A DNA stretch of 64,000 nucleotides. Origin: a virus. The notes under the pieces are model-generated. The model was not told the DNA's origin, did no database searches, and was given only the letters and a program-made list of their open reading frames with translations. The translations under genes and the position numbers were made by a program. The stretch spans positions 32,001 through 96,000 of the IMG/VR virus record IMGVR_UViG_3300028287_000410. The stretch is one strand, 5' to 3'. Position 1 is the first letter of the stretch. Each line of letters opens with the position of its first letter. Positions 558 to 7,313 of the stretch are shown piece after piece.

Positions 558-591
558 AAAGGGGGAAGTGTCTTGACATTTCTCCCTTTTT
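558..591 (+). terminator. Intrinsic terminator hairpin after the ATPase gene, overlapping the -35 box of the next promoter
   Basis: AAAGGGGGAAGTGTC-TT-GACATTTCTCCCTTT stem (G-U pairs allowed) followed by T run. Confidence 0.65.
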
Positions 592-601
592 ATAGTATAA
601 T
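573..601 (+). promoter_or_regulatory. sigma70-type promoter for the biosynthetic cassette
   Basis: TTGACA 573-578, 17 bp, TATAAT 596-601 (perfect consensus). Confidence 0.8.
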
Positions 602-608
602 AAGAATA

Positions 609-1976
609 ATGATATATCAAACATTTAAACAAACTGCAAAAAGATTTCCAAATAAGGATGCACTTATTTGCGGTGACAAAACATACACATATTCAGAACT
701 AGCGACTAGTGTTGATAACTTGATTGCTGTACTTAGTACGGCATTTATGCCAAATGAGCGTGTACTATTTGCGAGTGAACGTTGGCATAATTATGTGCGT
801 ATGGTTTTGGCATGTGATGCTCTAGGTGTTACTTTTATGCCGACATATTATGATTTGCCCAAAGCAGTTATCGATGATATATCAAAAGCAAGCAAACCGG
901 ACCATATCATTCTAAACGAAGATGATGCTATTAATCTTAGACCGCATAATAAGGGATTAGTTTGCGTTAAGGGAAAAGAATACGTTTACACTGTTCTATT
1001 CACTAGCGGTACTACAGGAGCTCCTAAGGCTGTCGCACATAGCAACAAGGCGTGTTATGATGCTTGTATTCAAAACATTGACATATTCAACATGAATGCA
1101 GACGATGTTATTTTAGCTCAACTCCCACCTCCGACAGTAGCAGGCTTATATCTATTCCCACTACCAGCACTTATGATAGGTGCTACGGTTGTCATGGAAG
1201 CATTCAATCCAAGACGCTATGCAGAACTAAATCTAACATATAAACCAACTGTTGGTATTATTGTTCCAGCTATGATTGTTGCTATGAATAGAGTGCGCAG
1301 TTGGCACGAACTTGATATGTCACATTGGCGTGAACTAAGTGTCGGTAGTACAGTTATTCCAGAAGAAATGTTAAACATGTTATTTGACAAGGGTGTTCCA
1401 GTCATACGTGATTTATACGGATGCACTGAAACTCATGTACCTCCGTTTACATATCTAATCGAACCAGATACTCAACACAAGCTACAATTAGAGTGTACTC
1501 CAAACTATCAATACAAACTTGATAGATACGGAGTCATGTGGATCAAAGGCTCACCAGTAATGATGGATTATCTTAATGATGATGCAAAGTTTGACGAGAA
1601 TGGATACTGGTGCACCGGTGATGTATTTGAACGCAGACACAATAAACTATTCTATAAATCACGTCAGAAAGATTTGATTAAAGTGAATAGTTATAATGTA
1701 TCCCCAGTATCAATCGAAAATGCAATTATGGTATTCCCAGATATAGAGGAAGTATGTGTGACGTTTCGAAGCAGGGAAATGTTGGGAGAAGTTGAGATTG
1801 TAGCATTGGTAAAGTCAGAAAAAGAGATAAATATAAGTGAACTACAGTTATCTATCAAAGATAAATTATTCCCTTATGAAATCCCCAAAGAAATAATTAT
1901 TGTTGATGAACCACTTACCAGGAATCAAATGGGGAAAATTCAACGGGAAGCTAACAGAGAGAAATTTGTAACATGA
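609..1976 (+). CDS. AMP-binding acyl-CoA/acyl-ACP ligase (ANL adenylating enzyme)
   Basis: LFTSGTTGAPKAV P-loop, YGCTE, TGD, MGKIQR; the ORF-track TTG start at 573 is the -35 box, ATG 609 preferred. Confidence 0.9.
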   Translation: MIYQTFKQTAKRFPNKDALICGDKTYTYSELATSVDNLIAVLSTAFMPNERVLFASERWHNYVRMVLACDALGVTFMPTYYDLPKAVIDDISKASKPDHIILNEDDAINLRPHNKGLVCVKGKEYVYTVLFTSGTTGAPKAVAHSNKACYDACIQNIDIFNMNADDVILAQLPPPTVAGLYLFPLPALMIGATVVMEAFNPRRYAELNLTYKPTVGIIVPAMIVAMNRVRSWHELDMSHWRELSVGSTVIPEEMLNMLFDKGVPVIRDLYGCTETHVPPFTYLIEPDTQHKLQLECTPNYQYKLDRYGVMWIKGSPVMMDYLNDDAKFDENGYWCTGDVFERRHNKLFYKSRQKDLIKVNSYNVSPVSIENAIMVFPDIEEVCVTFRSREMLGEVEIVALVKSEKEINISELQLSIKDKLFPYEIPKEIIIVDEPLTRNQMGKIQREANREKFVT

Positions 1977-5042: not shown

Positions 5043-6190
5043 CTGTTTATATCGAAAACATATCCGCTTTTACCCCATTCGGTAACTTAGAACAAACCTG
5101 GAAATCTATTATCAACAATGAAGTTGCGTATGGTCCTATAACTAAATTTGATCCAAATGCTAGTCGTTATACTAGAAGTAAAGTGGCAGGAGAATTTCAT
5201 TTCAATGCAGAAGATTATCCTATCATTACAGAGGCCGAGCGTGACAGATTACCCGAACATATGCAATGGGCATTAGCACTGACAAGTGATTTGATTGGTG
5301 ATAGACAATTACCAGAAGAAAGAACAAGTGTTATTGTATCTCCGGGATTTTCTATGTACTTAGAAAGTCTAAGAGCAAACAGAGAGAATACAGACAATAG
5401 CTATACATTCTGTCCTAATATGATTGCACACAATATCAACATCAAATATGGGTACACAGGACCCAGTACAATGACCATGAGTGCATGTAGTACAGGCATA
5501 TATAGTATTATTATGGGGTGTATGCTTATTGAAACAGGACAAGCAGATTATGTTATTGCAGGGTCAGTTGACCAATGTATCAGCGAAGATGCATTTAAAC
5601 AGATGGGTAAACTACGTGCATTGTCTACGAAGTATAATAATAATCCCACTGTAGCAAGTAGACCTTGGGATAAAAAACGTGACGGACTAGTACTAAGCGA
5701 AGGTGGTGCGCTATTTCTTTTAACCAAAGAAAAAACAGAAAACACTATCTGCGAAATTACAAAATACGCAATGACAAATGACGCATTTCAAGTTGTCGCC
5801 CCACATCCAGAAGGCAAGCATATCGAAAGATGTATGTCACAATGCATCGACAGTAAGCCAGATTTAATTAATGCACACGCAACATCCACACCTATGGGCG
5901 ATGTTGTAGAGTTAGATGCAATTAATAGATTAGGTATGAAAGATGTCTACATAACTGCAAATAAATCACAACTTGGACATATGATGGGCGCTGCTGGTGC
6001 AGTAGAGACAGCAATAAGTGCCATGAGTTTAGTTAATAACACTATAACACCATCACTAAATATTGATATACTAGAAGATAGATATAAACCAAAGTATGTG
6101 ACTACTGCAACAAAACATGACATAAATTCTGTTCTATGTAATAGCTTTGGATTTGGTGGCACTAATGCAAGTATACTATTAACAAAATGA
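5039..6190 (+). CDS. fabF: Beta-ketoacyl-ACP synthase II (ketosynthase)
   Basis: SACSTG (Cys), NAHATSTPMGD (His), KSQLGHMMGAAG (His), NSFGFGGTN. Confidence 0.93.
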   Translation: MTVYIENISAFTPFGNLEQTWKSIINNEVAYGPITKFDPNASRYTRSKVAGEFHFNAEDYPIITEAERDRLPEHMQWALALTSDLIGDRQLPEERTSVIVSPGFSMYLESLRANRENTDNSYTFCPNMIAHNINIKYGYTGPSTMTMSACSTGIYSIIMGCMLIETGQADYVIAGSVDQCISEDAFKQMGKLRALSTKYNNNPTVASRPWDKKRDGLVLSEGGALFLLTKEKTENTICEITKYAMTNDAFQVVAPHPEGKHIERCMSQCIDSKPDLINAHATSTPMGDVVELDAINRLGMKDVYITANKSQLGHMMGAAGAVETAISAMSLVNNTITPSLNIDILEDRYKPKYVTTATKHDINSVLCNSFGFGGTNASILLTK

Positions 6191-6585
6191 CATTTCAAGA
6201 TTTATTTAAAAACAACCCTAACATATGGATGCCAATAGCAGACATGTTAGACAATGTTTTAACATCAGGGATAAACGATAGATTTACACGCGCTGAACGT
6301 GAATACATGTTTGCACACTTTTCAAAAGAAAATAGTTGCGACTTTTGCTATGAACATCATATAGATTTCGCATATGATTTAGGTTATAACAATAGTATTA
6401 CAGTCAAAGACTTGATGGACGAAGACGCATTAGAAAATATATTTTGGATCAAAAATATTGCACTGTTAGTCAATACTGCGATAAAAGAGTATGATATAAA
6501 ACAAATTAATTCAGAAAATAAAAAACTGAAGAATACAACTATAAAAGAATACGGTTATAACTATAAAAAGAATATACGGAGTTAA
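6187..6585 (+). CDS. AhpD/carboxymuconolactone-decarboxylase-like protein
   Basis: ERE...SKENSCDFCYEHH matches the AhpD ExxxxxxSxxNxCxxCxxxH core. Confidence 0.6.
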   Translation: MTFQDLFKNNPNIWMPIADMLDNVLTSGINDRFTRAEREYMFAHFSKENSCDFCYEHHIDFAYDLGYNNSITVKDLMDEDALENIFWIKNIALLVNTAIKEYDIKQINSENKKLKNTTIKEYGYNYKKNIRS

Positions 6586-6587
6586 AA

Positions 6588-7313
6588 ATGAAAAACATAA
6601 GCATCGATAACTTAAATGAAGTTATAGAAAATCTAATTTATTTACCTCTCAATATCAGTAATCCACCTGAGGGATGCATTGACGGGATAGAAGAAATAAC
6701 AGATGACATGATGAAGTGGGACGAATTCAGATCCTGTAACCTTATCCCCCTTGCTATCGACTACAGAGAAAAAGATGTCATTGAATGGGTGCCAAAATTT
6801 ATTGATAAATTTCCAAAACTAAAGACTTGGCTAGAACAAGAAGTTTTTACTAAGGTAGGTTTTGGTAGAACACTGATAATCGTTACAGACCCAGATGAAA
6901 CAAATGCTCCCCATATAGATGCGGCGCAGGATACATTCGTAGGTATATTAAATCATAAACTGCGATATGTATTACAAGGAAACGTAAGTGACTTAGTTTT
7001 CATTTCTAAGGATAATACGACTGTTATCCCAGAAATCGACAAACCTTATATTATGAATGGTAAGTGGCCACATATGATGCACAATACATACGATAAAAGA
7101 AAATACACATTAGCTATTGGTGCACCTTGGGAGCCAAGCATTGACGATGAACAATATAGAAACCTAATAACAGATGCTTATAGTAAATTTAATAAAAATT
7201 ATATTGGGTCAACTGGCATTGAGCTACCAGAAAACTGGAAGGAAATGTTTGAGGACTATGATAAAAATAAATCAAACCATGTCGATGCCAAAAATTTTAT
7301 TGAAAAAACTTGA
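6588..7313 (+). CDS. Putative 2OG-Fe(II) oxygenase (Asp/Asn beta-hydroxylase-like)
   Basis: PHID (HxD) and distal WPHMMHN His in a jelly-roll pattern. Confidence 0.55.
   Translation: MKNISIDNLNEVIENLIYLPLNISNPPEGCIDGIEEITDDMMKWDEFRSCNLIPLAIDYREKDVIEWVPKFIDKFPKLKTWLEQEVFTKVGFGRTLIIVTDPDETNAPHIDAAQDTFVGILNHKLRYVLQGNVSDLVFISKDNTTVIPEIDKPYIMNGKWPHMMHNTYDKRKYTLAIGAPWEPSIDDEQYRNLITDAYSKFNKNYIGSTGIELPENWKEMFEDYDKNKSNHVDAKNFIEKT

Follow-up and report, generated by a model that had tools for sequence, protein, structure and literature searches.

Introduction

Biosynthetic gene clusters are rare in phages. According to the available text of one survey, bacteriocins of temperate phages account for 99.3% of prophage clusters, and a type III polyketide synthase and a homoserine lactone synthase are among the rare exceptions (bioRxiv 2020.10.01.322628). 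The closest viral systems described are a strain-variable cyanophage cluster predicted to make a halogenated metabolite, located in jumbo phages and combining a halogenase with 2-oxoglutarate (2OG) oxygenases (Iyer et al. 2021, PMC7824862, available text), and the halogenase homologue VirX1, for which the table in the available part of a review lists no pathway (PMC8407142). As far as the available texts go, an adenylating ligase, a His-box desaturase and an acyl carrier protein (ACP) form the JamABC unit (PMC8406139, PMC10088813), a dedicated ACP and ketosynthase (KS) build a special acyl chain for transfer to an amine by an N-acyltransferase in the NodE/NodF plus NodA system (PMC5080398), as also in those of FeeM and LuxI, and the flavin halogenase CmlS of the chloramphenicol dichloroacetyl module acts on a small enolisable acyl thioester (PMC8407142). 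Here we analyse a stretch of 64,000 nucleotides (the window; positions 32,001 to 96,000 of the IMG/VR virus record IMGVR_UViG_3300028287_000410), near the left end of which a cassette with genes for a ligase, a halogenase homologue, a GNAT acyltransferase and a KS is inserted between two core phage genes.

A preliminary description of this region had proposed a seven-gene cluster with the logic of JamABCD. That reading was right in kind but wrong in the JamABC analogy and in the size of the core. The cassette is real, conserved and native to phages, and with a probability of about 0.55 it would encode an optional, carrier-protein-dependent acyl-tailoring pathway that relies on the fatty-acid machinery of the host.

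Results

Layout of the cassette

Seven open reading frames (ORFs) on the + strand occupy 609-7313, with neighbours that abut or overlap (ATGA overlaps at 1973, 5039 and 6187), as tightly coupled as first described. The cassette lies between the MoxR ATPase and the peptidase-vWA genes and splits that pair. The features are the following:

1..538, + strand: MoxR-type AAA+ ATPase, 3' part (phrog_1297, E 6.5e-98); left flank, a core phage gene that starts before the window and flanks the slot in relatives
558..601, + strand: fused terminator/promoter, with a hairpin (558-589) containing the -35 box (573-578), then a U-tract, the -10 box (596-601) and a leaderless ATG at 609
609..1976, + strand: acyl-adenylating ligase of the ANL family, 455 residues, core (PF00501, E 1.1e-41; PF13193); closest models and structures are CoA ligases
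1973..3670, + strand: flavin-dependent halogenase homologue of the tryptophan-halogenase type, 565 residues, core (PF04820, E 6.3e-90); Lys77 retained
3663..4442, + strand: membrane His-box desaturase, about 259 residues, accessory and exchangeable (PF00487, E 5.3e-10)
4443..5042, + strand: GNAT-fold acyltransferase, core (structure model and fold searches); an unnamed, apparently viral family
5039..6190, + strand: FabF-like KS, 383 residues, core (ketoacyl synthase Pfam matches, E 2e-27 and 1e-20); phage-specific clade
6187..6585, + strand: AhpD-like CxxC protein, rare accessory (TIGR04030, E 1.2e-3)
6588..7313, + strand: AspH-like 2OG-Fe(II) oxygenase, accessory (Atlas look-alikes, score 0.95; HxD motif)
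7371..8711, + strand: metallopeptidase-vWA co-chaperone (PF13203, PF09967), right flank, a core phage gene with its own promoter (7310-7338)

The source (G000) is one virus record of 107.8 kb with a completeness of about 30%. Its PolB is nearest to that of Sinorhizobium phage Phosso (50%) and then to that of Atu_ph07 (45%), and it has the MoxR ATPase with the metallopeptidase-vWA pair, a trait described for group 2.2 jumbo phages in the available text of Iyer et al. 2021 (PMC7824862). The source genome is that of an Atu_ph07-like jumbo phage, and a TARA contig and marine runs point to a marine habitat. No tRNA genes were found.

Conservation of the cassette in a variable slot

Two sets of loci were compared, one of 28 IMG/VR loci carrying the KS clade and one of 78 metagenome loci, 53 of which were examined (the other 25 being ≤37% identical), with 27 of these reaching the ATPase gene; many of the loci are near-duplicates. 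Ligase, halogenase, GNAT and KS genes were found together at the same slot in 27 of the 28 IMG/VR loci, the remaining one beginning within the KS gene, and in all 27 metagenome loci reaching the ATPase, so the synteny recurs in phage metagenomes; 18 distinct ATPase sequences accompany a full cassette. The cassette is also present in the relative G001, whose genome is complete (342,607 bp, with terminal repeats).

As gene types of this kind are usually bacterial, an assembly chimera or a recent bacterial contamination was considered and rejected. The same slot is shared by dozens of independent phage contigs, the GC content of the cassette resembles that of the flanking DNA, and the presence of the cassette in a complete genome with terminal repeats excludes a chimera, whose residual probability is negligible. 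No bacterial counterpart was found either: the best 80 of 328 GTDB KS loci were 30-39% identical, and none of the 80 had a halogenase or GNAT homologue as a neighbour. Within the protein database the KS clade is 57-93% identical, falling to 32-36% against cellular FabF. Among isolate phages, searches gave no close KS (29 records, 27-40% identical, mostly unannotated or host-like fragments), no close ligase (37 records; 22-28% among the 25 matches listed), and no match for the desaturase or the GNAT.

The accessory genes behave differently from the core. The desaturase is present in 14/28 IMG/VR and 13/27 metagenome loci, often as one or two paralogues 27-34% identical, the AhpD-like gene in 3/28 and 3/27, and the oxygenase gene in 2/28 and 5/27, respectively; these three are swappable extras. 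All seven genes of the preliminary description are thus present here, but as a strain-specific set around a conserved core of four. In five loci (L253, L255, L256, L273 and L296), the AhpD-like gene or the oxygenase gene alternates in one position after a 210-residue desaturase type.

The slot is a hotspot. Over 46 distinct ATPases, 21 were without a cassette, 10 had a cassette with desaturase, eight had one without desaturase and seven had a truncated ligase, the cassette-less group including the 90-95% relatives of the window. On a quick ATPase tree (46 of 81 rows, after removal of those that duplicated another sequence, lacked a complete ATPase ORF or were unresolved downstream of it), the cassette states were patchy, with eight changes for which gain and loss are inseparable from the tree. 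In a strain whose ATPase is 99% identical, halogenase, GNAT and KS are 79%, 46% and 67% identical, respectively; therefore, modules have been exchanged between strains. The five genes shared with L013 gave ratios of non-synonymous to synonymous substitution of 0.06-0.19, and the shared cassette genes are under purifying selection.

The seven truncated-ligase variants (L040, L044, L055, L059, L061, L063 and L078) have, after the ATPase, a ligase of 341-369 residues that lacks the C-terminal domain and in several of them has a degraded P-loop, and no halogenase or KS. Most retain the GNAT, and a 227-residue mini-ligase, a class IV aminotransferase or an oxygenase is also held by these variants. 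Since a natural ligase-GNAT fusion protein (P0238) exists and G001 has a second ligase-GNAT pair, ligase and GNAT form the basic unit, to which halogenase and KS are a coupled add-on and the rest tailoring. In G001, a block with a second GNAT and a mini-ligase (L107:590-5042) adjoins sulfotransferase-like genes.

Upstream of the cassette, the promoter matches 12/12 positions of the sigma70 consensus. It is therefore as perfect as first described but not unique, as matches of 12/12 at 9281 and 11/12 at 7310 were also found in the window. The hairpin at 558-589 (-18.4 kcal/mol, z -5.0) serves as terminator of the upstream gene. Among 24 loci inspected, this arrangement of hairpin-embedded -35 box, U-tract, -10 box and leaderless ATG recurs in the cassette-bearing loci L013, L016, L032, L034 and L059, whereas the cassette-less relatives have a separate terminator and vWA promoter of a different design. 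The fused element also precedes a lone GNAT-like gene in L030. Position 573, originally given as the start of the feature, belongs to the -35 box. The most likely start codon of the ligase is the leaderless ATG at 609, and that of the desaturase is TTG 3663, not 3555. Five metatranscriptome runs matched (best share 0.06), and in the three of them that were compared, short contigs cover parts of ligase and halogenase, among them two identical pieces in X1, 245 and 251 bases long, with none over 3769-7222; as they are possibly DNA-derived, they were counted as evidence neither way.

Enzymes of the cassette

The assignment of the first gene to an acyl-adenylating ligase was confirmed. The best 25 of 99 NCBIfam models and the top PDB matches were of CoA-ligase types, with 185 bits on a CoA-ligase model versus 33 on PRK09192 (cut-off 600), which we take to be the model of fatty acyl-AMP ligases (FAAL); FAAL structures were not among the PDB matches shown, which does not exclude them. 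The protein is thus CoA-ligase-like and not FAAL-like. Full-length copies read KVNSY or KVNSF in the A8 region (residues 350-366), at a position where ANL enzymes usually have glycine, a change that may alter the thioester-forming step.

These data bear on the terminal alkyne or haloalkyne starter unit of the JamABC(D) type proposed in the preliminary description, in which JamD is presumably a flavin halogenase (it was found nowhere in two reviews). Although ligase, desaturase and ACP are all encoded in the source genome, the two defining traits of such a unit, a FAAL-type ligase and an invariable clustering of desaturase and ACP with it, are both missing: the ligase scores are those of a CoA ligase, the desaturase is missing from 14/28 IMG/VR and 14/27 metagenome loci, the ACP is not adjacent, and none lies within any cassette. 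As the desaturase is swappable or absent in about half of the cassettes, the alkyne reading is not supported, and we consider it very improbable.

The second protein is, as first proposed, a homologue of flavin-dependent halogenases, with Thal, PrnA and VirX1 among its PDB matches and the flavin motif GxGxxG present as GGGAAG. Its catalytic Lys77 is conserved in 18/18 cassette copies, in 23/23 close homologues and in 117/117 homologues examined. In contrast, the WxWxIP site reads WNFIIT here and WxFxI[P/S/T] in 18/18 cassette copies, and the tunnel motif Fx.Px.Sx.G reads FVEPMEANS, with its Ser and Gly in 0/18 copies, although the tunnel Glu is retained in the close group. Two Syn10 enzymes keep near-canonical versions of both (WxWxxP and FIEPLES[TN]G). 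In the available text of the review mentioned above, Fx.Px.Sx.G is a marker of active halogenases and WxWxIP is thought to prevent monooxygenation, although some active halogenases are without the latter (PMC8407142). The drift of both motifs in every cassette copy could hence indicate a monooxygenase or oxidase, in which case the product would be an oxidised, halogen-free N-acyl compound, but the invariant lysine, the retained Glu and the active enzymes without WxWxIP make this doubtful. As the lysine is kept while two motifs have drifted, halogenation by this enzyme is no more than likely. In two distant phages, G049 (L242:6256-12268) and G047 (L243:6948-10096), four and two tandem halogenase homologues, respectively, sit among many 2OG-oxygenase-like genes, and neither ACP nor ligase was found there.

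The fifth protein was described as a FabF with an intact Cys-His-His triad, and this triad (C150, H280 and H314) is present in 88/88 phage KS sequences, with K309 and the GFGG-gate F372 in 87/88 each. It scores 255 bits on TIGR03150, below the cut-off of 494 for the FabF equivalog. Its acyl pocket differs from that of bacterial enzymes: a Gly near the gate, present in 24/24 bacterial sequences, is Gln in 88/88 phage ones, an Ala is replaced by Lys, and the gate residue equivalent to I108, Ile in 22/24 bacterial sequences, is Leu in 41, Phe in 25, Ile in 18 and Tyr in four of the 88. The KS belongs to a phage-only clade and has a remodelled pocket. In the available texts, I108F confines the Escherichia coli enzyme to C6-C8 (PMC9006962; bioRxiv 2026.02.26.708327); since the gate is Phe here, the KS likely makes a short or unusual chain.

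ORF 4443 had no Pfam match, but the GNAT-like nature first proposed for it was confirmed by structure prediction (mean predicted local distance difference test, pLDDT, 90.5; Foldseek E 6e-7; best fold match a GNAT with Z 11.1, root-mean-square deviation (rmsd) 3.4 and 146 aligned residues). The fold matches do not assign it to the LuxI and FeeM type, as FeeM (rank 19; Z 10.1, rmsd 4.1, 153 aligned) and RpaI (rank 36; Z 9.8) tie with generic GNATs. NodA (PF02474) gave no match at E 1 or better in any of five records. The family has 239 representatives, its Atlas clusters being 100% viral among members with a record, and in P0140 and P0145 a neighbouring domain is apparently fused to the GNAT. 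A ligase-GNAT complex prediction scored 0.01 and was not used as evidence.

The GNAT could instead acylate protein or DNA, without any released product, so as to control the ligase as Pat does, to take over the host in the manner of Rac or to modify bases like Mom. Pat is among the top fold matches (Z 10.7, rmsd 3.7, 150 aligned), but these matches are tied with generic acetyltransferases and non-specific. Pat targets a lysine in the C-terminal domain of its ligase, and the GNAT is retained in six of the seven truncated variants, beside ligases without that domain. Even considering that jumbo-phage GNATs have been predicted to modify host proteins or DNA (PMC7824862, available text), this possibility is distinctly unlikely.

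Among the accessory proteins, the desaturase was confirmed by its His boxes (HRWASH, HRYHH and HNNHH). For the AhpD-like protein, the CxxC motif stands but the family match is weak (19 bits on TIGR04030 versus a cut-off of 233). The putative 2OG oxygenase groups with Asp_Arg_Hydrox Atlas clusters, and its HxD motif suggests a hydroxylase-type oxygenase, but it had no oxygenase match in Pfam or PHROGs. CxxC and HxD are familiar motifs of AhpD-like proteins and 2OG oxygenases, respectively.

A carrier-protein locus associated with the cassette

A candidate ACP is encoded in a block at the other half of the window:

33466..34071, - strand: cupin/AspH-like oxygenase (weak Pfam Cupin_2 match, E 4.5e-4); absent from this place in 5/5 cassette-less relatives
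34238..35158, + strand: radical SAM protein directly upstream of the ACP (NCBIfam-model match); in 7/51 records, all cassette-bearing
35161..35397, + strand: ACP with a DSL serine motif (NCBIfam ACP, E 5e-14); candidate partner
35397..37410, + strand: two paralogous alpha/beta-hydrolase-fold proteins, candidate thioesterase or acyltransferase; in 5/51 records, all cassette-bearing

The hydrolase fold of ORF 36388 comes from a moderate model (pLDDT 65; best Z 10.1, rmsd 3.7, 196 aligned), and a homologue lies directly after the KS gene in L010. An ACP was found in 13/50 records, that is, in 13/26 with a cassette, 0/22 without it and 0/2 with a truncated ligase, and AcpS in 2/51, both cassette-bearing. 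All records except one are fragments of related phages, so these counts are not independent, which detracts from the link, and synteny at the ACP site was therefore compared in close relatives. Five of five close cassette-less relatives span the anchor gene at 32714 without the cupin-radical SAM-ACP-hydrolase block (33466-37410).

That the ACP at 35161 is the partner of the cassette thus agrees with the tracking of ACPs with cassettes, but desaturase-free cassettes were found solely with an AcpP-type ACP beside IscA, which may be the true core partner. G001 encodes three ACPs, AcpS, a nitroreductase, an Fpr-like reductase and a flavodoxin; at L103:94-1728 of this genome, an AcpP-type ACP is accompanied by two IscA-like genes and by a gene of the nitroreductase family that is a candidate for the flavin reductase.

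FabD, FabG and FabA/Z were found in 0/5 records, complete G001 included, and no FabD, FabG or FabZ appeared when G000 and G001 ORFs were blasted against fab-neighbour ORFs of 80 bacterial loci, a reference set with few FabD and FabG. Therefore, the pathway must take malonyl-ACP and any reduction from the host. Cyanophage desaturases have reportedly been described as well. Along with prophage acpP/fabF/fabG, treated as auxiliary lipid genes in the available text of PMC8224337, and with the AcpP-type ACP and AcpS found here, they would fit a phage that boosts or remodels host membrane fatty acids through salvage, elongation and desaturation, with the halogenase as a passenger. This is improbable, as the halogenase is never parted from the KS in the IMG/VR and metagenome loci, the desaturase is optional, the Gln of the KS pocket sets it apart from bacterial FabF, and FabD, FabG and FabZ were missing from the five records.

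Other modifying genes were observed. On the - strand of the window, modifying genes, radical SAM/SPASM-like and carbamoyltransferase genes among them, form extended series next to structural genes at 12236-33445 and 43645-60196; where checked, these are largely common to cassette-less relatives. In other phages (L347, L348 and L354), homologues of the 34238 radical SAM gene share their locus with glycosyltransferase-like genes, and a head-tail adaptor and a tail sheath stabilizer are encoded alongside. Outside the window, QueD-, FolE-, QueE- and MetK-like genes (G000:C1:15122-22101), recognised by eye, suggest 7-deazaguanine DNA modification.

Proposed pathway and its alternatives

The observed basis for a pathway is that the genes were identified, keep intact catalytic residues, are coupled, occur together and are under purifying selection; substrates, order of steps, halogenation, acceptor and timing are our inference. 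The ligase would adenylate a carboxylic acid and load it either onto CoA or onto an ACP of the phage, itself primed by the AcpS of phage or host, and the KS would extend the chain with host malonyl-ACP, probably keeping it short. The flavin enzyme, with reduced flavin from a host or phage reductase, would halogenate the acyl intermediate or an electron-rich acceptor; in one attractive variant, as no ketoreductase is encoded, the halogen would be placed on C2 of a beta-keto thioester, as has been suggested for CmlS. The product would differ among strains through the optional desaturases, hydroxylase, radical SAM enzyme and hydrolase, and the GNAT would finally move the acyl group onto an amine, giving an N-acyl product that acts as a small molecule or marks a host-cell molecule during infection.

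Several findings weigh against this proposal. The ACP is ~28 kb away from the cassette, and the wider family of the 34238 radical SAM protein is ACP-adjacent in just 13/50 loci. The Phe gate is present in only 25 of the 88 phage KS sequences, the halogenase clusters by sequence with enzymes acting on free rather than ACP-tethered substrates, and the seven truncated variants retain a partly degenerate ligase in a slot without halogenase or KS.

With the same chemistry, the acceptor could be a surface polymer, so that a virion glycan or the host envelope would be decorated in the manner of NodE/F plus NodA, for superinfection exclusion or receptor masking. The swapping of halogenase, GNAT and KS between strains with nearly identical ATPases is what arms-race or surface genes would show, the genomes hold carbamoyltransferase and sulfotransferase-like genes, and distant radical SAM homologues adjoin a weak glycosyltransferase match and neck/tail genes. 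Capsule decoration, or a metabolite, was also proposed for the cyanophage halogenase cluster in the available text of Iyer et al. 2021 (PMC7824862). However, the carbamoyltransferase is present in 5/5 cassette-less relatives and therefore does not track the cassette, no NodA was detected, and a host-type sigma70 promoter would point to early expression rather than to virion assembly. A surface mark is, on balance, rather unlikely.

A more ambitious form of the N-acyl pathway, held tentatively and at somewhat less than even odds, is that of an ACP-dependent assembly line evolved by a marine jumbo-phage lineage and encoded over two loci, which would make diversifying organohalogen N-acyl compounds in infected cells. 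It would comprise the ligase, a phage-specific short-chain KS, the halogenase and the new GNAT family, together with ACP, AcpS, radical SAM enzyme, hydrolase and desaturases. If true, phages would have a thiotemplated, halogenating pathway of their own for natural products, and marine organohalogens would have a viral source.

Comparison with known systems

The cassette is apparently undescribed. No description of it was found in the literature, where most subscription papers were outside the scope and supplementary gene tables of PMC7824862 and PMC9123017 could list its genes. The available text of PMC12619734 treats another phage lineage, that of PMC9123017 makes no mention of acyl, halogenase, desaturase or fatty acid, and that of PMC7824862 does not contain "desaturase" or "fatty". 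With a halogenase homologue locked to a ligase, a KS and an acyltransferase across a phage lineage, and with ACPs and a phosphopantetheinyl transferase tracking it, the cassette offers a small, bounded gene set for probing the natural role of a viral halogenase and phage acyl natural products. Its present, absent and swapped variants in close relatives are natural controls, and the KS and GNAT families are new enzyme material.

Among viral systems, the cyanophage cluster is organised around carbamoyltransferases, with a methylase and phosphatases, in the available text of its description, whereas the core here comprises ligase, GNAT and KS with ACP and AcpS. VirX1 and the cyanophage and pelagiphage tryptophan-halogenase homologues belong to the same Pfam family and keep the catalytic lysine, but are 25-30% identical to the cassette enzyme and have no acyl machinery annotated beside them. 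ACP or KS genes are also known from phage or prophage DNA, namely phage acpP/fabF/fabG (PMC8224337) and ACP islands of flavobacterial jumbo phages (PMC13573597); in the available texts, these keep the host fabG-acpP-fabF order or are without a KS, whereas here a diverged phage KS is coupled to halogenase and GNAT.

Among the other pathways, JamABC shares with the source genome an adenylating ligase, a His-box desaturase and an ACP, but in the available descriptions JamA is a FAAL and the three genes form an invariant unit, whereas here the ligase resembles CoA ligases, the desaturase is optional and the ACP lies far from both. Since the substrate of CmlS is a small enolisable acyl thioester, its chemistry would suit a KS that has no accompanying ketoreductase. 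The cassette enzyme nevertheless groups with tryptophan halogenases, and CmlS was absent from its 32 PDB matches, which does not exclude a likeness. The partner ligase of CmlS is presumably CmlK. The NodE/F plus NodA, FeeM and LuxI systems differ in that no NodA match was found, FeeM and RpaI just tie with generic GNATs, and a halogenase and a ligase are added here; by analogy, the mode of action of the cassette is most likely akin to that of NodE/F plus NodA or of FeeM-type systems, to which it does not belong.

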